Part shown: piece by piece, positions 2,796 to 31,921 of the stretch
Numbering within the stretch: the first letter of the stretch is position 1
Layout of the letters: every line of letters begins with the position of its first letter
Virus record (IMG/VR): IMGVR_UViG_2909309443_000004
Reading direction: 5' to 3' (one strand)
Origin: a virus
Lineage: Duplodnaviria > Heunggongvirae > Uroviricota > Caudoviricetes
Length of the DNA: 35,146 nt
Notes under the pieces: generated by a model
What the model was told of the DNA's origin: nothing
What the model saw: only the letters and a program-made list of their open reading frames with translations
The model's database searches: none
Program-made: the position numbers and the translations under genes

Positions 2796-3737
2796 TTACA
2801 TAGATGTTTCGTTTAATTCTTCTCGACGAACGCTGTAAACGTCGGTGGCTTTTGCCAGCAGTTCGTCATCATCTGAAAGTTTTTGTGCAATGTATTTGTA
2901 AGCTTTATCCAGTTCGAAGACAGTGCTGTAATTCATCGCTGCGCTGGTAAAGGCCATCAGCATTTCTTCTGGATCACGGCTATCCGCTTTACGCGTTTGC
3001 TCATCAGGCTTTTTCACTTGTTTAGCGTTGATCAGACTGTTCATTCCCGCAGCAGTGGTCGTTTGCGGAGTAATGTCTCGCTCAACGCGCGGTGCCGTTT
3101 CCTGTAATTCGTCTGGTGTGTAGACGCCCATGATTACGTCAGGACAGTGCAGGCGAGACCAGCGTTTTGTCGCAAGGTATGCGAGTTGTTGTTTCGGATC
3201 ACTGGCCCAAAGTGTGGAGTTTCTTACCTGTGCTTGAGACAGCATTAACTCAAGCACTCGAGGTTGATCCTCGCCCTTCATGGTTGCCCATACGCGAACA
3301 CCGCAGCCTTCTTCGTCTTTTAGAGTCCAGCCTGGTGCGATATATGGATTGCCGTTTTTGGATGTTTTCTCAACAAACTTACCGATCACGCGTTCCCACG
3401 GCCCGAACCACTCGTAGTTGATGCGATCTTTTGTTGGCGACATCGTTGAGATAACTGCGTTTACTAATTGGGCTTCATAACCTAGCGTGCCGTTCACAAC
3501 ATGGGTTTTCTGAGCCACGGCAAACGGGTTCATTCCCCACTGCGCAGCCTGCATTGCCACGGCCATGCAATCAGCTGGTTTCCCGGCGAGGTGCGCCGGT
3601 ACCGTTACGCGGCTTTGCGCCATTACCTCGGCGAATTTCATCAGTTGGTTCAAGCCGTCTGGGCTGAAAATAGTTGCAGCAGTTCCAGCGATTGCTGTGT
3701 CTACTGGTGCGTTGATGTTTGCGATGTCGTTGCTCAT
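2796..3737 (-). CDS. recT: RecT-family single-strand annealing recombinase
   Basis: Track ORF 2796..3764; ATG at 3737 overlaps stop of upstream exonuclease gene (ATGA). Sequence features of RecT family (..LWASDPKQQLAYLATKRWSRLHCPDVIMGV..). Confidence 0.85.
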   Translation of the reverse strand: MSNDIANINAPVDTAIAGTAATIFSPDGLNQLMKFAEVMAQSRVTVPAHLAGKPADCMAVAMQAAQWGMNPFAVAQKTHVVNGTLGYEAQLVNAVISTMSPTKDRINYEWFGPWERVIGKFVEKTSKNGNPYIAPGWTLKDEEGCGVRVWATMKGEDQPRVLELMLSQAQVRNSTLWASDPKQQLAYLATKRWSRLHCPDVIMGVYTPDELQETAPRVERDITPQTTTAAGMNSLINAKQVKKPDEQTRKADSRDPEEMLMAFTSAAMNYSTVFELDKAYKYIAQKLSDDDELLAKATDVYSVRREELNETSM

Positions 3738-4555
3738 ATGTACATATCCTGTTTGCGTGCCCACTCAGGGCGTTTAATGATTTCCACACCGCCCCATTCA
3801 TCATTGATGCGGCATTCGTGATAGGTATTCAGATCCCGGCGGAACAGAGCGTGCCCGGCATCGACATCCTGCGCATCCAGCTCGAACACGCGTACCGGAT
3901 ACCGACCACAATCAATGCTTTCGCTCACGGCAAGAAAGAAAAAACCATGCGGCTGACCAGTAACCCTCATTGCGCCTTCGCGGTACATTGCGTCCTGCAC
4001 GTGGTAGCGGAATTCCTCGATGTGGCGTGCAAAACGGTCCATATCTGCAACCTTTTTCACGTCGACGATTACGTTGTGCTCGTTCAGCCATTTGTCTGGA
4101 CGAATTCGGCACAACTCACCCGTCTCTTCATCGTTCCAGTACATTGATGCTTCGCAGTAACCAGGTGCTTCCAACATCCAGCGTGCCGCCGGATGAGCCA
4201 TTGCGCTATCACGCATCAGCTCCAGTTTTCGCCACTGCTCGACATCAAGTACCGTAATACCCATATCCGCCACATCACGAAGAAATGCTTCTTCGTCAGC
4301 TTTACCTTGTTTTGTCCGACGATCTAATTTCGGTGAAACGATGAAGCGTTTGTCGAATTCTCCAGGTTCCAGAAGCAGACAGTGCAATGCGGTTCCCATA
4401 TCCAGTGCAGACTTTTTCTCTTCGTCTTCTGGTGCTGCCTGAACCCATTTAAGAAGCGCCGGATTCTTGGCAACCATGTCCAGTTGCGACTTACTCACGC
4501 CGTCACCGGCGTGGTAGTCTTCGTTGCTGATGTCGAAATAAATTCCCGGTTTCAT
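3734..4555 (-). CDS. Putative exonuclease, PD-(D/E)XK fold (RecE C-terminal domain / exonuclease VIII-like), partner of RecT
   Basis: 273-aa ORF; N-terminal GIYFDISNEDYHAG motif and acidic/Lys catalytic-like residues (..VIVDVKK..) typical of phage PDDEXK exonucleases found beside RecT; start overlaps previous gene stop. Confidence 0.7.
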   Translation of the reverse strand: MKPGIYFDISNEDYHAGDGVSKSQLDMVAKNPALLKWVQAAPEDEEKKSALDMGTALHCLLLEPGEFDKRFIVSPKLDRRTKQGKADEEAFLRDVADMGITVLDVEQWRKLELMRDSAMAHPAARWMLEAPGYCEASMYWNDEETGELCRIRPDKWLNEHNVIVDVKKVADMDRFARHIEEFRYHVQDAMYREGAMRVTGQPHGFFFLAVSESIDCGRYPVRVFELDAQDVDAGHALFRRDLNTYHECRINDEWGGVEIIKRPEWARKQDMYI

Positions 4556-4853: not shown

Positions 4854-5006
4854 TCAGCCCTCCCATATCTCGTTATCGTTGGCCACATCGCGAGCTTCTT
4901 TGCTGACGAAAGCCCACTTAATGCCTTCCTGTAAGGTGCGGAACTTCCAGCTCATGAATCCGCATGCAGTAACGCAGTACCAACCGTTGATGATTTTCCA
5001 CTGCAT
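4854..5006 (-). CDS. Small Trp/Cys-containing protein (50 aa), first gene of leftward early operon
   Basis: Manually translated minus-strand ORF MQWKIINGWYCVTACGFMSWKFRTLQEGIKWAFVSKEARDVANDNEIWEG; below 60-aa track cutoff; lies immediately downstream of the two OL operator palindromes. Confidence 0.3.
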   Translation of the reverse strand: MQWKIINGWYCVTACGFMSWKFRTLQEGIKWAFVSKEARDVANDNEIWEG

Positions 5007-5025
5007 AACTTGTTACCTCGGTCTG

Positions 5026-5102
5026 TTACCGTTGAGGTAATAATTATGCTTATTTGGTTTGGTGTCAATAGATATGAGTTAAAAAAATTACCCGTAAGGT
5101 AA
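5026..5102. promoter_or_regulatory. OL-like operator pair: TTACCGTTGAGGTAA (5026-5040) and TTACCCGTAAGGTAA (5088-5102)
   Basis: Two perfect 5-bp inverted half-sites separated by 5 bp, located between repressor gene terminator and start of leftward early operon. Confidence 0.55.
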
Positions 5103-5137: not shown

Positions 5138-5159
5138 TTACTTGCTGAAAACTATAGTT

Positions 5160-5744
5160 TTATTGTTTGCTTTTTTCGTTCTGGTTGATGACAAATTCAA
5201 TGTAACTTTCGATCTTTGCCTTCTCTGTTTCAGGTAACAATGCGTAGCGCGAGCGGTCATAGTTGATAGTCGCGGGGTCGTGCGGGTGAATCAGTAATTC
5301 ATATCCGTGACGCCCAAATGCGGATGCAACATTCTCCAGGGTGGAAATGGAAACGCTGACCTCATTGTTTAACAGGCGGCTGATTGTTACCTGGGCGACG
5401 CCGGATGCGCGGTGAAGTTTTCCCTGCGTTGAAAGGTCGCGGCTTTCGCTCATCCAGCGTTCCAGGTTGTGAGCCGCCAGTTGACCAATGTCGCTTGGTC
5501 CGACAGGCTGAAAACCTTCCTGAGAAAGCGAGCGATCGATATCAAGCCAGTTACGGGGTTTATTGGCGGCAGCTTCAATTTTTCGCGCAACCTGGTCGCC
5601 GATAACCTTCTTGCCAAGAGCCCAGCGGTTTACCAGATTTGCCTGAGTTCCAAGTTTTTCAGCCATCCGCGTCTGAACACCATTGAATTCACGGTCGATC
5701 AAGTCGTTGAGATTTTGCCTGCGGACGTCCTGGATACTTTTCAT
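5160..5744 (-). CDS. Prophage repressor (CI-like), HTH protein without recognisable S24 peptidase domain
   Basis: 194-aa ORF divergent from Cro-like gene; two HTH-like segments (GVQTRMAEKLGTQANLVNRWALGKK and LHRASGVAQVTISRLLNNEVSVSISTLENVASAF); no Ala-Gly/Ser-Lys LexA-like cleavage module evident. Confidence 0.7.
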   Translation of the reverse strand: MKSIQDVRRQNLNDLIDREFNGVQTRMAEKLGTQANLVNRWALGKKVIGDQVARKIEAAANKPRNWLDIDRSLSQEGFQPVGPSDIGQLAAHNLERWMSESRDLSTQGKLHRASGVAQVTISRLLNNEVSVSISTLENVASAFGRHGYELLIHPHDPATINYDRSRYALLPETEKAKIESYIEFVINQNEKSKQ

Positions 5745-5799: not shown

Positions 5800-5862
5800 T
5801 TACCCAACAGGTAAATGCACCTCATGGGTAACTATCCTTGATTTTTGTTACCTTATAGGTGA
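5800..5862. promoter_or_regulatory. OR-like operator region: TTACCCAACAGGTAA (5800-5814) and TTACCTTATAGGTGA (5848-5862) between divergent repressor and cro-like genes
   Basis: Same palindrome family as OL; intergenic 154-bp region with AT-rich promoter-like hexamers (TTGATT ... TGAATAT). Confidence 0.55.
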
Positions 5863-8130: not shown

Positions 8131-8207
8131 TTACCTGGAAGGTAATAAAATGTTCTAATCTCTATTGATTTCATGTCTTATGTGGTTTTTAATTACCTAA
8201 GGGGTAA
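8131..8207. promoter_or_regulatory. Operator pair TTACCTGGAAGGTAA (8131-8145) and TTACCTAAGGGGTAA (8193-8207) upstream of 8211 ORF
   Basis: Two perfect TTACC-N5-GGTAA palindromes in 117-bp intergenic region after P-like gene. Confidence 0.5.
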
Positions 8208-23050: not shown

Positions 23051-25525
23051 ATGAGACAGGAATGTATACAAGCGGTCCAGCAGGCGGCGCAGCGCACGTT
23101 AACGGCGCGAGAAATACAGAACATTGAAGACCGCATTTATCGAAATATGCGCTCCATTGCTCGTGATGACCCGATGTCGTGGCGACAACTTTCCGAATCA
23201 GAACGGTTGTATCGTGCAGCACAATTGGCATCTGAAGAATTACAGCGAGAAGCGGCATTAAAGAAACGTCGTGTGGCCCTCACTATAGCCGCACGTCAGA
23301 GATTGGATAAATTTATCAATAACTATCAAGGGGCTGATGGGAAACTTGGCGCTCTTAACCGTACTATTGCTTTTAATGCAGACGGTAAATCGAATTTCCT
23401 CTCTGTTGAATCCAGAACAAAAGCCACTCGTGATTATGCATTGAGTCAATTGCAGGAGGCATTTGAAGCAGTTGATCCTCGCTTTTTTGGCCTGTTTGAA
23501 GATGAAGCGGGCGTGCGTGACCTGGTATATGAAATGCGAGGGCAAAATACTGGCAATGCTAAAGCAAGAAAAGGTGCTAAGGCGTGGAGAGAAGTGACAG
23601 ATCTACTTCGCCGCCGGTTTAATGATGCTGGTGGGGACATTGGCTATCTCGAAAACTGGGGGATCCCTCAACATCATTCTATGGAAAAGGTTGGGGCGGT
23701 ATCAAAAGATAAATGGGTTAGCGATGTTATAGGTAAGCTGGATCGCAAATATTATACCCGAGCCGATGGACAACTGATGAACGATGCCGAGTTGTCTGCA
23801 TTTCTTGGAGAGGCTTATAACACGATCGCTACTGGTGGGCTGAATAAGCTTACTGACACCGGAATGCGAATTTCCGGAGCACGTGCTAACCGTGGTAATG
23901 CATCACGACAGATACATTTCAAAGATGCAGATTCCTATCTGCAATATCAGCAACTTTATGGCGATCGCTCTCTATGGGAAATCATGGTCGGTCACCTGGA
24001 AGGTATCAGTAAAGATATTGCACTGGTGGAAACATATGGCCCAAACCCCGATCATGTTTTCCGCTCTCTTCTTGATCAGGTGAAGGCAGAAACGGCAACA
24101 GCTAACCCGAGTAAAACCGGTAGCGTCGAGCGTCTGGCGAACAAAACAGAGAACTTGTACAACTTTATTTCCGGAAAAACACAGCCTGTAGCGAATCCCC
24201 ACATCGCGCGATGGTCTGACAATATCCGCAACTGGCTGGTTGCCAGCAGACTCGGATCCGCGTTGCTGTCATCGTTCTCTGATCTTGGAACCATGTATCT
24301 GTCTGCGAAGGTTACCAACCTTCCAATGAACCAGTTATTTCGCAACCAGCTTGAAGCTATTGACCCAACGAACCGTACTGAGCTTGCGCGGGCGCGCCGC
24401 GCTGGCCTGGCGATGGAATCTCTACTTGGCAGCGTTAACCGCTGGGCGATGGATAATATGGGGCCGTCTGTGTCTCGTTGGGCGGCAACGGCGGTAATGC
24501 GTGCCAGTGGGCTTACAGCATGGTCAGATGCGCACAAGCGCGCCTATGGCGTAACCATGATGGGAAGCCTGGGAGAAGTAGTGTCACGGACACCAGACCT
24601 TCGTAGCCTCGATGACTCTGATTTTCGTATCCTGAAAAGTAAAGGGATTACTGACACAGACTGGAGCGTATGGAAGCTGGCGCAACAGGAGGACTGGGGG
24701 AACGGTAATAATACGATGCTGACACCGGAAAGCATTATGCGTATCCCTGATTCAGCAGTTAAACATCTTGGTGAGCCTGAACGCGTGAAATTTGAGGCAA
24801 TGCGTAAACTGCTCGGTGCCGTAACTGAAGAAGTTGATATGGCTGTTATTACACCGGGCGCACGTGAGCAGATGTTCGTAGGGTCTGGTCTTCAGCGTGG
24901 AACATGGAAAGGTGAATTAACGAGAAGTGTTTTCCTGTTTAAATCGTTCCCTATCTCGGTTGTTATGCGTCACTGGTCACGCGCTATGGGTATGCCGTCT
25001 GCTGGTGGGCGTGCAGCATATATAGCAACGTTTTTAGCAAGCACAACCATGCTTGGTGCTCTTTCCATGCAGATTACTGATCTTATTAATGGGAGAAATC
25101 CAAAGGAAATGACCGGTGACCACATGGTTAAATTCTGGATAAATGCATTTTTAAAAGGTGGCGGGGCTGGGTTGTACGGTGATTTTCTTTTCTCTGACCA
25201 CACTAGGTACGGGAGCGGCGCGCTGGCGTCGATGCTTGGCCCGGTAGCTGGTCTGGTTGATGATGTAGTGAAGATTGCTCAGGGCATACCGTTAAATGCT
25301 GTGGAAGGGAAGAGTGAGCAGACTGGTGGTGATCTGGTGAAGCTGGGGAAAGGTTTGATGCCTGGTGCGAATCTCTGGTACTTGAAGGCGGCTCTCGATC
25401 ACATGATCTTTAACCAGATGCAGGAGTATTTTTCACCAGGTTATTTGCGTAAAATGGAGCAACGTTCGAAGAAAGAGTTTAACCAGACATACTGGTGGCG
25501 ACCACAGGATGTCACTCCGCAATAA
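23051..25525 (+). CDS. Internal virion (ejection) protein, T7 gp16-like C-terminal region
   Basis: 824-aa ORF; C-terminus (..GPVAGLVDDVVKIAQGIPLNAVEGKSEQTGGDLVKLGKGLMPGANLWYLKAALDHMIFNQ..) has the character of gp16-family tails. Confidence 0.55.
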   Translation: MRQECIQAVQQAAQRTLTAREIQNIEDRIYRNMRSIARDDPMSWRQLSESERLYRAAQLASEELQREAALKKRRVALTIAARQRLDKFINNYQGADGKLGALNRTIAFNADGKSNFLSVESRTKATRDYALSQLQEAFEAVDPRFFGLFEDEAGVRDLVYEMRGQNTGNAKARKGAKAWREVTDLLRRRFNDAGGDIGYLENWGIPQHHSMEKVGAVSKDKWVSDVIGKLDRKYYTRADGQLMNDAELSAFLGEAYNTIATGGLNKLTDTGMRISGARANRGNASRQIHFKDADSYLQYQQLYGDRSLWEIMVGHLEGISKDIALVETYGPNPDHVFRSLLDQVKAETATANPSKTGSVERLANKTENLYNFISGKTQPVANPHIARWSDNIRNWLVASRLGSALLSSFSDLGTMYLSAKVTNLPMNQLFRNQLEAIDPTNRTELARARRAGLAMESLLGSVNRWAMDNMGPSVSRWAATAVMRASGLTAWSDAHKRAYGVTMMGSLGEVVSRTPDLRSLDDSDFRILKSKGITDTDWSVWKLAQQEDWGNGNNTMLTPESIMRIPDSAVKHLGEPERVKFEAMRKLLGAVTEEVDMAVITPGAREQMFVGSGLQRGTWKGELTRSVFLFKSFPISVVMRHWSRAMGMPSAGGRAAYIATFLASTTMLGALSMQITDLINGRNPKEMTGDHMVKFWINAFLKGGGAGLYGDFLFSDHTRYGSGALASMLGPVAGLVDDVVKIAQGIPLNAVEGKSEQTGGDLVKLGKGLMPGANLWYLKAALDHMIFNQMQEYFSPGYLRKMEQRSKKEFNQTYWWRPQDVTPQ

Positions 25526-25721
25526 GGAAGTGTTGTGTTTTTAATTATTTTGAGTGTGATAATTTCTGGTGGATTGTTATTTATTGACCGCTACAAATAT
25601 TTTCTTAACCCTCAGACTCAAGCTATTTGCTGGTTCATCTTTGTTGTGCAGGGAGTAGTTCTTGTTGCAAGCCTTATTGAGGGGAGGCCTCTTATTTTTA
25701 CTGGGTAAATTAGGTGACTAC

Positions 25722-26018
25722 ATGCAAGCTATAGGATTCATTGTTTATATCGTCGTTGGTCTTTTTCAGTTGGCAGCAATTATGGCTGGGCTTGAATCAT
25801 GGTGGGGATTGCACTGGATAATTGCAGCCCCCATTGCTTTCATCGTGAGCTATATTCCATTTGTTGGAGCGATTGTTGGTATGGTTGGCGCTGTGGATGT
25901 ATGGCGGTGGGAGTGGTGGCAGGCTGGCCTTCTCTTCTTTGGTGGGATCATCTTTGCTATTGTCTGCGGTGGAATGTCATCATTTTTCGAATGGCTAGCA
26001 TTCAGAAAAGGAACGTGA
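25722..26018 (+). CDS. Small polytopic inner-membrane protein (3 predicted TM helices), function unknown
   Basis: Track ORF 25662..26018 (TTG); ATG 25722 follows AGGTGA; hydrophobic segments IGFIVYIVVGLFQLAAIMAGL / IIAAPIAFIVSYIPFVGAIVGMVGAV / LLFFGGIIFAIVCGG. Confidence 0.5.
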   Translation: MQAIGFIVYIVVGLFQLAAIMAGLESWWGLHWIIAAPIAFIVSYIPFVGAIVGMVGAVDVWRWEWWQAGLLFFGGIIFAIVCGGMSSFFEWLAFRKGT

Positions 26019-26049
26019 CATGTCACAGGCCGCTTTCGCGGCCTTGTTT

Positions 26050-26211
26050 TTAACGAATGCCACCGCCTCCCGGGCGGGAATCCGCAGAACGCCCACCGCA
26101 GCGGGAGCCGTCAGCGGCAGTATCGCTGTCGTGCTGACAACGACCGGCAAAGGCCTGAGTTGAAGCTACCAGAGACAACAAAACGAACAGTGCAGCAAAT
26201 GCTTTTTTCAT
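26050..26211 (-). CDS. Small secreted Cys-containing peptide (53 aa precursor)
   Basis: Internal Met of track ORF 26050..26283 gives MKKAFAALFVLLSLVASTQAFA signal peptide followed by 31-aa Gly/Arg/Asp-rich peptide with 2 Cys; weak RBS. Confidence 0.35.
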   Translation of the reverse strand: MKKAFAALFVLLSLVASTQAFAGRCQHDSDTAADGSRCGGRSADSRPGGGGIR

Positions 26212-26282
26212 TGTGAAATTTCCATCTATAAGCCACCTCAATGTGGCGTCAATGAGTGTAGCACTGACTTTTGTTTCGTCCA

Positions 26283-26304
26283 CAAAAAATCCCGCAGCGC
26301 GGGC
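26283..26304 (-). terminator. Rho-independent terminator after 147-aa gene
   Basis: Minus-strand hairpin CCCGC-gct-GCGGG followed by TTTTTTG, 2 nt after stop of 26305..26748 ORF. Confidence 0.5.
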
Positions 26305-26748
26305 TTATTCTTCTTCTTCATCATTAAAAAGCGGATTGTTGTTTCCATCTGATGAAAGGAAAGGTATGTGTTCTCTTGAAAATCCAACAATGACAATTTC
26401 ATTATCATTTTTTGCATAATGAATGCATTCATTAGAATGCATTCCGCCAGGGTTGAAATTTAAGTTAATGGTATAATTCTTAAATGTGTTTGGATACCAT
26501 GTTGGCCCACAATGATAATGCCAATAATTCTCTTGCTCATAATTGTCTGAGCCTGGAATTTTATCATGGTTATCATCAACCCACGAGGGCTTGTTTTTTC
26601 CAACAAGCGCCCTTCCATTGGCAACATCCTCTAAAAACCTTTGTATGATTTTTATTTCATCATCAGTAAGGAAAGGTCCGTCTACAGCGAAAGGGGTGTT
26701 GCTTTCCCCATGTAGAAAACTATTAGATATTCTAATGTTAAACTTCAA
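26305..26748 (-). CDS. Unknown AT-rich moron protein with acidic C-terminal tail (147 aa)
   Basis: TTG start 7 nt after AGGAG; markedly lower GC than surroundings; His/Cys cluster (YWHYHCGP...HSNECIHY) and terminal FNDEEEE; no recognised family. Confidence 0.55.
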   Translation of the reverse strand: MKFNIRISNSFLHGESNTPFAVDGPFLTDDEIKIIQRFLEDVANGRALVGKNKPSWVDDNHDKIPGSDNYEQENYWHYHCGPTWYPNTFKNYTINLNFNPGGMHSNECIHYAKNDNEIVIVGFSREHIPFLSSDGNNNPLFNDEEEE

Positions 26749-26768
26749 GGAAAACTCCTGATGTGCTT

Positions 26769-26936
26769 CTATTTGGAGCGAAATGCCGCCTTGAAGTCGC
26801 TAAAAGATGTTCCTGTCTGGTAAACCATATCCTTGTCGCGCTCTTTGCTTGCGCGACCAAGCATAACTTTTCCAATGACATCCCAGCATTGCTTGGCTTG
26901 TTCATTGTGCTGAGTACGATTTTTCAACGCTGTCAT
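26769..26936 (-). CDS. Small basic protein (55 aa), first gene of two-gene operon with 26305..26748
   Basis: Manually translated MTALKNRTQHNEQAKQCWDVIGKVMLGRASKERDKDMVYQTGTSFSDFKAAFRSK; GGAGG 6 nt upstream of ATG; operator palindrome 12 bp upstream. Confidence 0.4.
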   Translation of the reverse strand: MTALKNRTQHNEQAKQCWDVIGKVMLGRASKERDKDMVYQTGTSFSDFKAAFRSK

Positions 26937-26948
26937 ATCGCGCCTCCT

Positions 26949-26963
26949 TTACCTTTAAGGTAA
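26949..26963. promoter_or_regulatory. Operator palindrome TTACCTTTAAGGTAA overlapping promoter of 26936<-operon
   Basis: Perfect TTACC-N5-GGTAA; upstream (minus-strand sense) TTGGCG ... TAATAT hexamers at -35/-10-like spacing. Confidence 0.5.
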
Positions 26964-27029
26964 TATTACGCGAATCTACATCACATCGCCAATGATTATT
27001 TTAAAGGCACATCCCTGTGCCGCCGCCCG

Positions 27030-27749
27030 TCAGAAGAACCCTGCCTTGTCGTTGATGTACTCCGCGTGGGTCTGGATATCACGCAGGCATTTGCTCACAC
27101 CGACGATGTAGCAGAACATGGTGGTCAGTTCCGCCGCCGCGCCCGATACGTCATGCCCGTCTTCCTGTAACTGGTTCAGCAAATTCATCAGCAGTGAGTT
27201 CTCCGTCAGGCCGAGAACACCAGACGGTGAATGAATCAGGCTACGGTAGCCGGGCTTCAGTGGGGCGCTGTAGGTTTTGTTCTCTATCTTCATTGCCTGC
27301 ATCACTGCTGATGCTGTGGCGTTGGCTACCTGGTCGGCAACCATCTTTATGCGTTCTTCTTGCGGGAGCGAGTTTTTAATGTAACTTCCGGTGCGGCGGA
27401 TCTGAGGAAGAACCTCACCTGTAACCCATTTACGAAAGCGGTATGGGATAGTGCCTGGTGTCACCGCATCGCGGCAGCGGAGGATCAGTGTGTAGAGGCC
27501 TGACTCGTTGATAATATTGGTTTCGCCTTGACGGCCTAAGTTAAATTTAGCCCTTTCATCATCATCAAGAGATTTTATTGACATAGTGGGGTTTGTCAGT
27601 TGAAGAGCTTTAATAACGTCTTTGGCAACAAACCAAGGATTAATCGCAAATCCAACTCTCCTCAGAGTTATAACGCTCAAACGCTTTACACATACTTTGT
27701 GTTGGTGCTGGAGGGCGTTCAAGGGCAGCCATGACTTGCTCCCAAACAT
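27030..27749 (-). CDS. Bro-N-like antirepressor-type protein with C-terminal domain paralogous to 28868..29125 product
   Basis: Track ORF 27030..27758; Bro-N-like segment GFAINPWFVAKDVIKAL...SGLYTLILRCRDAVTPGTIPYRFRKWVTGEVLPQIRRTG; C-terminal ~90 aa share clear similarity with ORF 28868..29143. Confidence 0.6.
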   Translation of the reverse strand: MFGSKSWLPLNALQHQHKVCVKRLSVITLRRVGFAINPWFVAKDVIKALQLTNPTMSIKSLDDDERAKFNLGRQGETNIINESGLYTLILRCRDAVTPGTIPYRFRKWVTGEVLPQIRRTGSYIKNSLPQEERIKMVADQVANATASAVMQAMKIENKTYSAPLKPGYRSLIHSPSGVLGLTENSLLMNLLNQLQEDGHDVSGAAAELTTMFCYIVGVSKCLRDIQTHAEYINDKAGFF

Positions 27750-27924
27750 CCTCTTCAACGATCAAGCGGCGATGTTCATTAATAACTGTTTCAGCTCTAA
27801 AAGTCGTAGACTCCATTACAAATTGAGATACGGACACTTTAGAAATAACAGCAGCTTCTTCGATACGGCGCTTCGCAGCTTCGGGCAGACGAAACTCGAA
27901 CCGCTCCTTTCTTACTGCGTTCAT
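27640..27924 (-). CDS. DUF1778-like ribbon-helix-helix protein (TacA-antitoxin-like / Arc-like regulator)
   Basis: Track ORF 27640..27948 (GTG); ATG 27924 lies 5 nt after AGGAG; sequence MNAVRKERFEFRLPEAAKRRIEEAAVISKVSVSQFVMESTTFRAETVINEHRRLIVEEDVWEQVMAALERPPAP fits DUF1778 RHH pattern; no GNAT toxin partner present. Confidence 0.6.
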   Translation of the reverse strand: MNAVRKERFEFRLPEAAKRRIEEAAVISKVSVSQFVMESTTFRAETVINEHRRLIVEEDVWEQVMAALERPPAPTQSMCKAFERYNSEESWICD

Positions 27925-27988
27925 AACAACTCCTGAGCTAATGCTCACAGTGGTTTATACCACATAACGATATGCACGGTACGGGAAT

Positions 27989-28096
27989 TTACCGTACAGG
28001 TAATGATAAGCGCGAAGAAATATTAAAATCAACCTTATTTGGTTGATTGCGTTTAACGCTTGATCACCTGAAAGCAAGATATTACCTTTAAGGTAA
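27989..28096. promoter_or_regulatory. Operator pair TTACCGTACAGGTAA (27989-28003) and TTACCTTTAAGGTAA (28082-28096) in divergent promoter region
   Basis: Two perfect palindromes between divergent RHH/Bro-N operon and membrane zinc-ribbon gene. Confidence 0.5.
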
Positions 28097-28116
28097 TGTT
28101 ATTGTGAGGAAAAGCA

Positions 28117-28845
28117 ATGGAAGTTTTCTGGATAGTTGTTGGTGTGGTTGCGGTGATTATTTACGTTATCAACCAGAACAAGACTAAGATCTCTGATCGT
28201 ACGGTCGTTAATCATAACAAAACGATAAAGACCGAAGATGGGGAGATAACGATTAATCGTACACAGGTGATAGAACACACCTCTACTCAGTTTCAAAAAA
28301 CTGGAGGTAATGCGCCTAATATTTCCGCACCTCCTGCTTATGATAGTGCGGTAATCCAGACATATTATAAACAGCAGGAGTTAGCAAAAGAGAGGCAACT
28401 GATTCAGCCAAAGCCGTTTACAACTGAGATTCCACCTGGAGTGTCAACGCGTCCGGCATATCATGGAAGATTCCCTGGTGATGACATATCGTCTCAGTCA
28501 TCTAAAAAAGCACCTCAGGCAATATCAGAGCCAGCAAGAATACCTTCTGTATCGCCGCAAAAAGAAGAATCAGCTAACAGAGTTTCAAGTGGTAGCAAGC
28601 AGTGCTTGCGATGCAGAATAAACCTTCCATATGAAAAATTCAGGAAATCGTCAAAAAATCCAGATGGATTGACTAAATGGTGTGCAAGGTGTCTCGATGG
28701 CCCAAAGAATACACGCCATATGAAGTGGTGCCCAATTTGTAATGTCCGCAGAAAACGAACCAGCTTTTACCCTAATAATCAAAATGCGGACGGCTTAATG
28801 GCATGGTGCAAAACGTGCTGGGATGAGCACAAAGCGAAACGATAG
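28117..28845 (+). CDS. Membrane-anchored protein with duplicated C-terminal zinc-ribbon motifs, function unknown
   Basis: 242-aa ORF; N-terminal TM helix (FWIVVGVVAVIIYVI), long low-complexity linker, then two repeats CLRCRINLPYEKFRKSSKNPDGLTKWCARC and CPICNVRRKRTSFYPNNQNADGLMAWCKTC. Confidence 0.6.
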   Translation: MEVFWIVVGVVAVIIYVINQNKTKISDRTVVNHNKTIKTEDGEITINRTQVIEHTSTQFQKTGGNAPNISAPPAYDSAVIQTYYKQQELAKERQLIQPKPFTTEIPPGVSTRPAYHGRFPGDDISSQSSKKAPQAISEPARIPSVSPQKEESANRVSSGSKQCLRCRINLPYEKFRKSSKNPDGLTKWCARCLDGPKNTRHMKWCPICNVRRKRTSFYPNNQNADGLMAWCKTCWDEHKAKR

Positions 28846-28867
28846 GCCGCTCTTGCGGCCTTTAAAT

Positions 28868-29125
28868 TTACCGGGTTTGTTTTCGTAATTGTTCGGCACA
28901 ATAGTCGAGATGTGTTTGCAGATCCCGCATAGACATCTGTGAGCTGGTGACGTAGTTAATCAGTGCAGTCAGTTCGGCAAGTGGGCCATCGACATTAAAT
29001 CCATCCTTATCGAGATCCCGGAGTAATTTCATCAAGTGCGATCCCTCCACCAGTGACCTGACGCCTCCCGGCGTGTGAATCCTTTCGGTAAATCCGTCTT
29101 CCAGTGGATAGTGATACCGCTGCAT
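28868..29125 (-). CDS. Small protein paralogous to C-terminal domain of Bro-N-like protein
   Basis: Track ORF 28868..29143 (TTG); ATG at 29125 with GGAG RBS; ..LMKLLRDLDKDGFNVDGPLAELTALINYVTSSQMSMRDLQTHLDY.. aligns with ..LMNLLNQLQEDGHDVSGAAAELTTMFCYIVGVSKCLRDIQTHAEY.. of 27030 gene. Confidence 0.55.
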   Translation of the reverse strand: MQRYHYPLEDGFTERIHTPGGVRSLVEGSHLMKLLRDLDKDGFNVDGPLAELTALINYVTSSQMSMRDLQTHLDYCAEQLRKQTR

Positions 29126-29201
29126 CTTATCTTCTCCATGCAATAACTGTATATTTATACAGTATCAAATAATTTGTTTGCTATCCAGCACGTTTTGCAA
29201 A

Positions 29202-29216
29202 TTACCCGAAAGGTAA
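29202..29216. promoter_or_regulatory. Operator palindrome TTACCCGAAAGGTAA between 29125<- gene and tailspike
   Basis: Perfect TTACC-N5-GGTAA in 195-bp divergent intergenic region. Confidence 0.45.
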
Positions 29217-29320
29217 TATCTATTCATATTCACAGCCTTTCTATCCATATGTGGTTTTTCAGGTAATAGAATAACCAGATATGCGGCGCAACGGGTGCTG
29301 CGACTATCTGGAGATTTAAC

Positions 29321-31921
29321 ATGACGGTCTCAACCGAAGTTGACCACAACGAATACACCGGTAACGGCGTTACGACATCATTTCCGTATACCTTCCGTAT
29401 TTTCAAAAAAACCGACCTGGTTGTTCAGGTGTCTGATCTGAACGGGAACGTAACAGAATTGGTTCTGGATACCGGTTATAAGGTAACTGGAGCGGGCACT
29501 TATAGTGGCGGTGAAGTGGTTCTCCCGTCGCCGCTTGCTGCTGGCTGGCGAATTACGATAGAGCGTGTGCTTGATGTGGTGCAGGAGACTGATCTTCGCA
29601 ATCAGGAAAAATTTTTCCCCGAAGTTCATGAAGATGCATTTGACTACCTGACGATGCTGATCCAGCGATGTTTTGGGTGGTTCAGACGTGCATTGATGAA
29701 ACCCTCGTTGCTTGCAAAATATTACGATGCAAAGCAAAACAGAATATCTAACCTTGCTGATCCATCACTTGAGCAGGACGCTGTAAATAATCGCTCAATG
29801 CGTAATTATGTCGATGCTGCAATCGCCGGGGTTGTTGGTGGTTTTGGTTGGTTTATTCAGTATGGTTCTGGAGCAGTATACCGAACGTTCCAGGATAAGA
29901 TGCGGGATGAAGTAAATATTCGTGATTTTGGAGCAGGAGATTCAGGTGAAGTTACAGATGCTATTTTGAAGGCTGTTGCAGCTACTAATGGCACCATTAT
30001 TATCCCGGATGGAAATTATGTTTCTACTCCAACAGTAACGCAGACTCCGAACGTTATGAAATTGCTTTCACGAGCAGAGTTTAGAGGTTCTTTGACCATC
30101 AATCTTCCTGTTGGAACTGTTAACCTATCAGAAAAGACGCTAATCAGATCACAAAATGTTCATAAACTTTCTATTTCTGGTATTACGTATTCAACTACGC
30201 TAACTGGCTTAGTGGGTGTATCTGGTATCCCCAAATCATACCTAGTTACGCTCTCTCTGGCTGATGCTTCAAACGTTTCTGTAGGCGACGTCGTGATGAT
30301 TCGTCACGATATAACGGGGACAGGAGGATATCACATCCATTGTGGCGGATGGGTTGTGACTGCCGTGTCTGGCAAAAATGTTACCGTAAAAAACACCTGC
30401 CACCTGTCTGAATTACCAACGTCAACGATTACAGGCGGAACAGTAGTCATACTAAAAAGTATTCTGAGATATGCCGGATGTGATGGGATTGTGGCTGCAG
30501 GTGCTGGGTGCATTAAGACAATAAACGGTGTCGCAATTGTTGGTGATTATGACCTTGTGGCCGGCACTGGAACTATTGGTGCGCATGGTTTCTCCCTCAC
30601 TACTCCAGACATTACTGTTGCCATCCCAGACCCATCCAACGTGGTTTTTGATGCGTCAGGATGTATAGCAATTGGGCCTGATCTGGCGATCGTTGGGTTC
30701 GGAGAACAGGGGGTCGTGGCTTCAGAAAGATCTGGTGTGGTTTCAAACTTTATATCTTCATGCTCTAACCGCAAGCGCGGTGTATATTCTGAAGGCGCTC
30801 ATATACGCGGTAAATTTATGCTTTGCTCAGGGAATGGTGAGGATGGGATTATTGCTGATATTGGTGGCGCAATACAGGCTAACGGATCAGTTTGCTCTGG
30901 CAATGGGTTGAATGGGTTCTGGTCTTTTAATCATAGTTTTTTGGGGGCACCAGGGGGGATTGCGTGCGGTAACTATACCAATGGTGGTGAATCACGCGGA
31001 CCAGGTGCATTAAATCTGCAAAATGGGAAGAGCTATTTAAACAGGCTAATTGGTGTAACCGCTTCAAATAGCGGTGCAGTTATTTTCACTAACTCAACTG
31101 CCACACAAAATGGCACGGATGGTCTGGTTGCTGTTTACGATGGCTTAATATCTGCCGCCAATGCCAATTCAACGAGCAACGGTCGCTATGGGGTTAACGT
31201 AACTCACGCAAAAATTGTGCTTAAAGGCTCTGGAGGAGTGACTGGTAACACAACGGGAGATTACATCGATAACGGCGAGGGCACAATAATCAAGCCAGAT
31301 GGTACTATGCTGCCGAGGAATGCTGGCCCGCAAAGCATCCTTTCTATTCGTAACGCCAATCTTTCCGGTGCTGATGTCACGGCATCATCAATAGGCGATC
31401 TCACCGTCTCGCAAAGAAACACATCCTCGGGTGCATTAACCCCCCTGTATGTATTCAAATCTGACGGAACCCAGCATCCAGTCAATGACGCCACGCAGAA
31501 CCTTGGCAGGGCAAGCAATCGCTACAATGTTGGTTTCTTCGCTGGCGGAACACAGTCAACTTCAGATGCCACACTTAAAGACCCTATCCGGGAGTTCAAT
31601 CAGGCCGAACTCAATGCAGCAATGCGCATCTCGAAAATGTTTGGATTCTGGACGTGGCTTGATGATGACAGTAAGCGTTTGCATGCAGGGACTACGGTTC
31701 AAGCAGTGTTAGCTGTTCTGGAAGAGGAAGGTCTAGACTGGCGGAGCTATGGATTTATCTGTTTTGATGAGTGGGATGATGAATATACCCCGGTAACCAT
31801 TGAGGTAGATGGCGAAGTCGTTGAAACTGGCGAACTGCAATTAGTACGTGAGTCTGGTTCTGTATGGCAATTACGCGATCAGGAATTTGACAGATTCGTG
31901 ATGCGTGGACTTTCCGAATGA
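29321..31921 (+). CDS. Tailspike protein: T7 gp17-like N-terminal anchor, central beta-helix-like receptor-binding/depolymerase region, C-terminal intramolecular chaperone (peptidase S74-like)
   Basis: 866-aa ORF; N-terminus MTVSTEVDHNEYTGNGVTTSFPYTFRIFKKTDLVVQV typical of podovirus fibre/spike anchor; Gly/Ser/Asn-rich repetitive middle; C-terminal S-D-A-T-L-K autoproteolysis-like motif followed by conserved chaperone block. Confidence 0.8.
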   Translation: MTVSTEVDHNEYTGNGVTTSFPYTFRIFKKTDLVVQVSDLNGNVTELVLDTGYKVTGAGTYSGGEVVLPSPLAAGWRITIERVLDVVQETDLRNQEKFFPEVHEDAFDYLTMLIQRCFGWFRRALMKPSLLAKYYDAKQNRISNLADPSLEQDAVNNRSMRNYVDAAIAGVVGGFGWFIQYGSGAVYRTFQDKMRDEVNIRDFGAGDSGEVTDAILKAVAATNGTIIIPDGNYVSTPTVTQTPNVMKLLSRAEFRGSLTINLPVGTVNLSEKTLIRSQNVHKLSISGITYSTTLTGLVGVSGIPKSYLVTLSLADASNVSVGDVVMIRHDITGTGGYHIHCGGWVVTAVSGKNVTVKNTCHLSELPTSTITGGTVVILKSILRYAGCDGIVAAGAGCIKTINGVAIVGDYDLVAGTGTIGAHGFSLTTPDITVAIPDPSNVVFDASGCIAIGPDLAIVGFGEQGVVASERSGVVSNFISSCSNRKRGVYSEGAHIRGKFMLCSGNGEDGIIADIGGAIQANGSVCSGNGLNGFWSFNHSFLGAPGGIACGNYTNGGESRGPGALNLQNGKSYLNRLIGVTASNSGAVIFTNSTATQNGTDGLVAVYDGLISAANANSTSNGRYGVNVTHAKIVLKGSGGVTGNTTGDYIDNGEGTIIKPDGTMLPRNAGPQSILSIRNANLSGADVTASSIGDLTVSQRNTSSGALTPLYVFKSDGTQHPVNDATQNLGRASNRYNVGFFAGGTQSTSDATLKDPIREFNQAELNAAMRISKMFGFWTWLDDDSKRLHAGTTVQAVLAVLEEEGLDWRSYGFICFDEWDDEYTPVTIEVDGEVVETGELQLVRESGSVWQLRDQEFDRFVMRGLSE

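Follow-up and report, generated by a model that had tools for sequence, protein, structure and literature searches.

Why should the C-terminal part of a Bro-N-like protein recur, 1.1 kb away, as a small gene of its own? The question is raised by positions 27030-29125 of IMG/VR virus record IMGVR_UViG_2909309443_000004, a stretch of 35,146 nucleotides (Duplodnaviria; Heunggongvirae; Uroviricota; Caudoviricetes) which is referred to here, at its full length, as the window. The window is a phiV10/epsilon15-like (Uetakevirus-like) prophage of enterotoxigenic Escherichia coli; the 3.4 kb around the repeat match chromosomes of enterotoxigenic E. coli (O6:H16 and related strains) with 100% identity and are 94-98% identical, in patches, to phiV10, TL-2011b, vB_EcoP_ZX5 (ZX5 below), and other Uetakevirus-like coliphages. 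A reading made without database searches (the sequence-only reading) had noticed the repeat and had proposed that the stand-alone copy could act as a decoy, a dominant-negative regulator, or a target-binding module of the Bro-N antirepressor. We consider it likely that the window carries a lysis-lysogeny switch of the type found in Salmonella phage SPC32H, together with a second, ancient paralog of the antirepressor Ant which is fused to a Bro-N domain and is 5'-truncated here. The argument turns on the following features:

28868-29125, minus strand: ant, predicted stand-alone antirepressor of 85 amino acids (aa); RefSeq coordinates, with the open reading frame (ORF) open to 29143
29145-29164, minus strand: near-consensus LexA box TACTGTATAAATATACAGTT, some 20 nt ahead of the ant ATG
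27030-27680, minus strand: 5'-truncated Bro-N-Ant fusion; RefSeq start at 27680, ORF open to 27758 (242 aa)
27039-27284, minus strand: Ant-like domain at the C-terminus of the Bro-N protein (ORF residues 159-240 of 242)
5160-5744, minus strand: rep, prophage repressor, homolog of SPC32H Rep and presumed target of Ant

The coordinates 27030-29125 given for the pair proved correct, with 29125 being the true ATG of the small gene. Residues 163-234 of the Bro-N protein align without gaps to residues 10-81 of the small ORF, with 32 of the 72 positions identical (44%; BLASTP, E=3e-20). The sequence-only reading had made the significance of this alignment its test, and the similarity is significant: the Smith-Waterman score is 165, compared to a mean of 23.7 (standard deviation 4.2, maximum 61) for 2,000 shuffles (z=33). 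Both sequences are matched by phrog_450 (Bro-N C-terminus, E=4.8e-36; small ORF, E=6.4e-48) and by PDB chain 5D50_E (E=1.2e-13 and E=4.8e-46, respectively). At the sequence level, we thus regard the homology of the Bro-N C-terminal domain to the Ant module as certain. Because nucleotide identity between the two copies is 49.5%, and third-codon-position identity 32%, they are ancient paralogs. A recent duplication was considered and is ruled out, synonymous sites being saturated.

When PDB sequences were searched with the small ORF (phmmer), there was one match, 5D50_E ("Anti-repressor protein", residues 3-85 of 86). This chain is from the Rep-Ant complex of SPC32H, and the SPC32H gene at the equivalent locus, annotated as "ant: anti-repressor protein", is about 87% identical to the small gene. 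In the window as well as in SPC32H, ant adjoins the tailspike gene. The LexA box upstream of ant (29147-29162 by its narrower coordinates) is the sole good CTGT-N8-ACAG site of the 35-kb window, and its position is kept in SPC32H, phiV10, and 65FD. The small ant is carried by 529 of 5,426 E. coli genomes and by every epsilon15-like Salmonella phage; the Salmonella relatives have the small gene only, with no Bro-N-type copy. We hold it very likely, on sequence grounds, that the small gene is the SOS-controlled antirepressor of the prophage. For SPC32H, Rep is reportedly not cleavable by RecA, and Ant is said to bind the C-terminal domain of Rep; a point mutation in the LexA box reportedly renders SPC32N constitutively lytic. 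According to the summaries in two citing publications, LexA cleavage permits the synthesis of Ant, and the tetrameric Ant binds two Rep dimers and breaks up the DNA-binding tetramer (PMC7380047; PMC9638917).

The presumed target is encoded in the window. The product of rep matches 5D50_A ("Repressor") over its full length (phmmer, E=3.5e-42) and is 43% identical to SPC32H Rep, with 54% in the N-terminal and 41% in the C-terminal domain. A 15-bp palindrome, TTACC-N5-GGTAA, was searched for with at most one mismatch allowed; it has 10 copies in the window, with 0.02 expected by chance:

5026-5040 and 5088-5102: operator-like pair (OL-like), downstream of rep
5800-5814 and 5848-5862: operator-like pair (OR-like), upstream of rep
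8131-8145 and 8193-8207: operator-like pair after the lambda-P-like replication gene
26949-26963: operator-like palindrome separating the Bro-N stop codon from the small ORFs that follow on the left
27989-28003: operator-like palindrome upstream of the TacA-like/Bro-N unit, in its promoter region
28082-28096: operator-like palindrome, perfect (TTACCTTTAAGGTAA), about 20 nt upstream of a gene for a zinc-ribbon membrane protein
29202-29216: operator-like palindrome in the divergent region between ant and the tailspike gene

Such palindromes bracket rep in SPC32H likewise, and all four copies in the accessory region are kept in relatives. The one upstream of ant is found in SPC32H, 65FD, phiV10, and E. 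coli 118UI, the one at 28082-28096 in 118UI and TL-2011b, and the one at 27989-28003 is situated, in relatives, 37-51 nt upstream of the 5' end of an IsrK RNA (see below). TTACC-N5-GGTAA is probably the Rep operator; if so, Rep would also control the second antirepressor unit. Across phage groups, the identity of the Bro-N-type domain was seen to track Rep identity more closely than the identity of the small Ant does.

How far does the likeness to Ant extend for the domain that is fused to Bro-N? Its match to 5D50_E covers residues 3-79. An AlphaFold2 model of the C-terminal domain alone has a predicted local distance difference test (pLDDT) score of 87.9 and, when submitted to Foldseek, retrieves 5d50_E as top match (probability 1.00, template modelling scores 0.63/0.76, root-mean-square deviation (rmsd) 1.8 A over 67 residues), with the next match at E=4. 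Structure prediction had been proposed as a check by the sequence-only reading, and the model of this domain does superpose on the crystal chain. A Foldseek search with the full-length Bro-N model (pLDDT 75) retrieved nothing, 5D50 included, because long linker helices dominate that model.

An exhaustive profile search of 1.84 billion representative proteins yielded 57 representatives of the Ant family. Most are stand-alone proteins of 80-100 aa, and in some members the module is fused behind Bro-N, AntA, Phage_pRha, or ORF6N domains; in gp42 of TL-2011b it follows a P22_AR_N domain. These architectures are from the exhaustive search, as a word-indexed search with the C-terminal domain gave short proteins only and missed the full-length fusions. 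Since it is fused behind such varied N-terminal domains, the Ant module is a portable C-terminal unit of several "antirepressor" architectures. Among the 5,426 E. coli genomes, the Bro-N-type domain is found in 469, compared to 529 for the small ant, and the Bro-N fusion is an accessory copy that is prone to decay. In phiV10, the Bro-N protein p23 ("putative anti-immunity", 3158-3742 of the locus) is frameshifted or truncated inside the Ant-like domain and ends with ...LLMNRTTGMMYQARRRS; the reference phage of the group is thus without an intact second module. Stand-alone proteins of 95 aa with the Bro-N-type Ant domain occur in Klebsiella and Raoultella (P0145, P0148, P0123, P0127). They begin with MPAILEAMK, which in the fusion proteins is the linker directly ahead of the Ant domain, and could be N-terminally deleted remnants of fusions or products of an internal start.

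Functional data are available for a close relative of the Bro-N protein. Overexpression of ORF4 from ZX5 decreased lysogens from 1e9 to 1e6 (about 1000-fold) and rep mRNA by 75% (PMC9782041). ORF4 is 82% identical to the window protein overall, with no differences in the C-terminal three quarters. In the ZX5 annotation, the small ant is left as "hypothetical protein". The proposal that the repeated part is a target-binding module is borne out in spirit: the shared unit of about 80 aa is the SPC32H-type Ant domain, a repressor-binding protein in 5D50. We favour the view that the Bro-N C-terminal domain is a Rep-binding module, without pressing it strongly.

The Bro-N copy of the window differs from that of its relatives at the 5' end, where two further features are involved:

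27642-27985, minus strand: replacement segment of 344 bp with a complete gene of the TacA family
27640-27924, minus strand: TacA-family ribbon-helix-helix gene (RefSeq coordinates; ORF open to 27948)

The Bro-N domain is matched by Pfam PF02498 with 65.5 bits (cut-off 25.6) at ORF residues 34-118, covering profile positions 4-96 of 96. According to blastn, homology to the intact relatives begins at 27641, the breakpoint being 27641/27642; relative to 118UI, it breaks there and resumes at 27986. Instead of the first approximately 25 Bro-N residues that the intact relatives have (MTANVTPSVFHFESEATIRAIVIDG...), the ORF of the window encodes unrelated sequence, read from the end of the TacA-like gene, so that the domain is incomplete, having lost its native N-terminal strands and its start codon. 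The 344-bp segment has taken the place of an IsrK/C4 RNA leader and, with it, of the ribosome-binding site, start codon, and those first codons of Bro-N. It is missing from E. coli 118UI, TL-2011b, and phiV10, and is present in 15 of 5,426 complete E. coli genomes, each time in the identical context. A search for a donor of the segment, covering phages as well as E. coli genomes (near and distant modes), found none; the nearest phage proteins are 43% identical. The gene in the segment matches Pfam TacA1 (DUF1778) with E=2.8e-19 over profile positions 1-79 of 80. No GNAT toxin partner was found in its neighbourhood; the truncated Bro-N-Ant gene is located downstream instead. Upstream of the TacA-family gene, the palindrome GTGGTATAAACCAC (27964-27951) overlaps a TGnTATAAA extended -10-like motif, and this region may be the gene's own autoregulated promoter.

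The missing leader is found in six relatives (E. coli 118UI, phiV10, TL-2011b, ZX5, Tyrion, and HEMP4). Directly upstream of Bro-N-Ant, Rfam models detect isrK with 67-80 bits (gathering score 50) and the C4 antisense RNA with 66-80 bits (gathering score 45); the a1/b1 target element scores slightly below the gathering score in two relatives which were searched at an E-value threshold. The leaders are located as follows (coordinates within each locus):

phiV10 (L002): IsrK/C4 leader at 3790-3988
TL-2011b (L003): IsrK/C4 leader at 4883-5068
ZX5 (L010): IsrK/C4 leader at 1324-1509
Other relatives: IsrK/C4 leaders at 3266-3460 (L004), 2313-2498 (L009), and 5146-5330 (L007)

In 118UI, the sequence of the C4 loop, CCUUUGUAG, complements that of the Bro-N Shine-Dalgarno site, CUACAAAGG, and UACGCCAA pairs with UUGGCGU on both sides of C4. 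The ZX5 annotation has a coding sequence for an "ash family protein" (37 aa, L010 1438-1551) that overlaps the C4 match at 1424-1509; here, an RNA gene has probably been mistaken for a protein. For the window (positions 25500-29400), Rfam gave no match even at E<=0.1. As C4 and IsrK are present in six relatives, the window is a derivative that has lost the RNA leader. To judge from these alignments, the Bro-N copy of the window has in all probability been 5'-truncated and stripped of its riboregulator. A LexA box was also sought upstream of the Bro-N unit; the window has no LexA-like box besides that of ant, and the Bro-N copy is thus without one.

TL-2011b has a third copy of the module. Its gp42 (L003 1780-2964) has a C-terminus with 95% nucleotide identity to the Bro-N C-terminal domain of the window; ahead of gp42 lie an Arc-like gene and a match to the P22 sar RNA (Rfam, 44.8 bits), and together these make up a complete P22-type immI unit. 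With all three layouts found, one effector module is under LexA, C4/IsrK, and Arc/sar control.

From these observations the following mechanism may be pictured. Rep would keep the prophage silent via its TTACC-N5-GGTAA operators, and LexA would occupy the box in the ant promoter. DNA damage would remove LexA, Ant would be made, and Ant would bind Rep and strip it off the DNA. In the intact relatives, Bro-N-Ant would be a second antirepressor under a separate control circuit, its promoter carrying Rep-type operators and its ribosome-binding site pairing with the loops of the IsrK/C4 leader. With this wiring, the second copy would be produced after infection, or at a time when Rep is already gone, and it would either reinforce the lytic decision or defeat the immunity of a resident prophage. 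In the window, the remnant of Bro-N-Ant would be either re-wired behind the TacA-like gene or decaying.

Several points weigh against this reading. Divergence from SPC32H is discordant, with Ant 87% but Rep just 43% identical, so the Ant-Rep pairing in the E. coli phages is extrapolated. The contact surface may have been conserved, or else other constraints may act on Ant, such as tetramerisation or the breadth of its targets. The operators are assigned from the position and conservation of the palindromes alone. The experiment with ZX5 used the whole of ORF4, overexpressed with a glutathione S-transferase (GST) tag, and so does not pin the active part to the C-terminal domain (PMC9782041). 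Finally, no convincing Shine-Dalgarno sequence was found for the in-frame Bro-N starts of the window (ATG at 27749, TTG at 27680), and this copy may be inert.

The last point leads to the alternative that the Bro-N copy of the window is a dead remnant, that only the small Ant works, and that the pair has no present-day interplay. We rate this as a serious possibility, if one somewhat below an even chance. The break at 27641/27642 has removed the N-terminus, first beta-strands included, and the in-frame starts have poor or no Shine-Dalgarno sequences. Elsewhere the gene is dispensable: the Salmonella relatives do without it, and in phiV10 a frameshift interrupts its Ant domain. Moreover, the arrangement of the window is restricted to 15 near-identical genomes. 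However, the frame has stayed open over 216-242 codons, it shares 41 nt with the end of the intact gene upstream, an operon-like layout in which translational coupling is possible, and its Ant-like domain is 100% identical to that of functional-looking relatives. Truncation by the replacement segment makes expression of the local copy doubtful, and we consider the chances that the remnant is still expressed to be roughly balanced.

A different target is conceivable as well: rather than its own Rep, Bro-N-Ant might act on the repressors of heteroimmune prophages, in anti-immunity or cross-induction, as do P22 Ant and the Gifsy antirepressors. The two modules are just 44% identical, which leaves room for a different specificity, and wiring of the C4/IsrK type or the Arc/sar immI type is the classic anti-immunity layout. 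Cross-talk of antirepressors among prophages is documented (Lemire 2011, as summarised in PMC7380047). Yet ZX5 ORF4 reduced lysogeny and the rep transcript of its own phage, and identities of the fused domain and of Rep run in parallel (100/100, 77/78, and 54/45, for three groups only), suggesting co-evolution with the phage's own Rep. We therefore consider heteroimmune targets unlikely. Far less probable still is the role suggested by the sequence-only reading, with the stand-alone copy modulating the Bro-N antirepressor as a decoy or dominant-negative regulator; mixed oligomers would be one way to do so. SPC32H Ant is tetrameric (PMC9638917), which makes mixed tetramers of paralogs conceivable, and both genes lie within one 2-kb region. 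But the stand-alone protein is a proven antirepressor in SPC32H, a phage without any Bro-N copy; it is the more conserved and the more widespread of the two, and it is under its own SOS-dependent control. The proposed roles are thus reversed, the stand-alone copy being the ortholog of a characterised LexA-controlled antirepressor. Given the orthology to SPC32H Ant, the LexA box, and the Rep homolog in the window, it is predicted to be the main SOS-wired antirepressor and no decoy.

Returning to an SPC32H-type switch with a second Ant paralog, all of its components are of known kinds (SPC32H Ant/Rep, Bro-N antirepressors, C4/IsrK, TacA), and no new system is involved. In the accessible literature, we found no statement that a single module is common to the Bro-N "antirepressor" of coliphages and the small Ant of Salmonella phages, and none that places the Ant module under control of three different classical circuits. 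That several control circuits make use of one module is a modest new point. As a tentative generalisation, the Ant domain may be a portable repressor-binding "warhead" of which phiV10-like coliphages carry two to three copies per genome, each on a different input, so as to form a multi-input switch for induction and anti-immunity that acts on one repressor. The stand-alone copy would take its input from LexA, the Bro-N fusion from Rep operators plus IsrK/C4 antisense RNA, and the P22_AR_N fusion from Arc plus sar RNA.

This type of prophage is carried by about 1 in 10 complete E. coli genomes. The small gene is nevertheless still "hypothetical" or of "unknown function" in RefSeq and PHROGs, despite the crystal structure and the genetics of its Salmonella ortholog, and work on E. 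coli phages took the Bro-N protein as "the" antirepressor, with the small gene unannotated. Annotation is corrected if both are seen as copies of one repressor-binding module. It is predicted that SOS induction of these prophages, in enterotoxigenic and Shiga-toxin-producing E. coli, runs via the small gene, and the pair offers a concrete test of which domain of a Bro-N-type antirepressor contacts the repressor. If the tentative "warhead" reading is true, the variable C-terminal domain, and not the conserved N-terminal one, would set repressor specificity in the many unstudied "antirepressors" of the Bro-N, AntA, pRha, ORF6N, and P22_AR_N kinds.

The surroundings of the pair follow the gene order of the phage group. 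An 824-aa virion protein and a small membrane protein are followed by accessory genes, by ant on the minus strand, and by the tailspike gene; the order in epsilon15 and SPC32H is the same, minus about 3.1 kb of extra accessory genes. The neighbouring genes are:

23051-25525: gene for the 824-aa virion protein
28117-28845, plus strand: gene for the zinc-ribbon membrane protein (242 aa), situated between both Ant copies
29321-31921: tailspike gene, divergent from ant

As had been noted, the zinc-ribbon membrane gene lies between the two copies; so does the TacA-family gene, which had gone unmentioned. The zinc-ribbon protein has a membrane anchor at its N-terminus and two CxxC zinc ribbons at its C-terminus; it matches phrog_6762 over its full length, with weak matches to Stc1 and to endonuclease VII-like zinc ribbons. 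There is a full-length counterpart in E. coli 118UI and a pseudogene-like one in TL-2011b, and the gene is absent from SPC32H, phiV10, and ZX5. It is accessory and outside the switch. Two small conserved genes, for 55 aa (phrog_8607) and 147 aa (phrog_5954), are located downstream of Bro-N at 26305-26936 (minus strand). Because TL-2011b has a YafO-family toxin pair in the equivalent position, this slot seems to collect toxin-antitoxin-like and other accessory cargo. NCBIfam and PADLOC gave zero matches for any gene of the region, with no sign of a known defence system.

How, then, does the locus compare with known systems? Of a type II toxin-antitoxin pair such as TacA/TacT, the window has the TacA antitoxin domain but not an adjacent GNAT toxin. 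Tum of phage 186, AntC of N15, and the Gifsy antirepressors are alike in that a small LexA-repressed protein inactivates a non-cleavable repressor (PMC7380047); no sequence relationship of these proteins with the Ant family was detected. With the immI region of P22 (mnt, arc, sar, ant), the locus shares its position between injection-protein genes and the tailspike gene as well as ribbon-helix-helix regulators upstream of the antirepressor, and TL-2011b holds a true Arc-like/sar/P22_AR_N unit with an Ant-module C-terminus. The window itself differs in lacking arc, mnt, and sar; the ribbon-helix-helix gene that it does have belongs to the TacA family and was acquired via a lineage-specific replacement.

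In Gifsy-1, IsrK controls the translation of an antirepressor-like protein from isrK-orf45-anrP (PMC4825925). Like that locus and the immI regions of P1 and P7 (c4, icd, ant), the intact relatives have Bro-N-Ant behind IsrK/a1b1 and C4, and, as in P1/P7, their C4 loops are complementary to the ribosome-binding site of the antirepressor. They differ in that no coupling ORF of the icd or orf45 kind separates C4 from the antirepressor gene, and in that the effector is SPC32H-Ant-like; in the window, moreover, the whole RNA leader is deleted. Bro-N "antirepressor" proteins and the shuffling of their domains are said to have been treated by Iyer et al. in 2002. The window protein resembles this class (PF02498) in its arrangement of N-terminal Bro-N, linker, and variable C-module, and is distinct in that the C-module can be linked to a solved repressor-binding protein and that its Bro-N domain lacks the first approximately 25 residues.

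The closest counterpart is the Rep-Ant switch of SPC32H, reportedly described by Kim and Ryu in 2013 (J Virol) and Kim et al. in 2016 (PNAS), with structures 5D50 and 5D4Z in the PDB. Rep is only 43% identical, the window has about 3.1 kb extra between the membrane gene and ant, and its Bro-N-fused second Ant module is missing in SPC32H. In both, however, Ant is of equal length and 87% identical, a LexA box precedes it, the locus is bordered by injection/membrane genes on one side and by the tailspike gene on the other, and TTACC-N5-GGTAA palindromes flank a rep gene.

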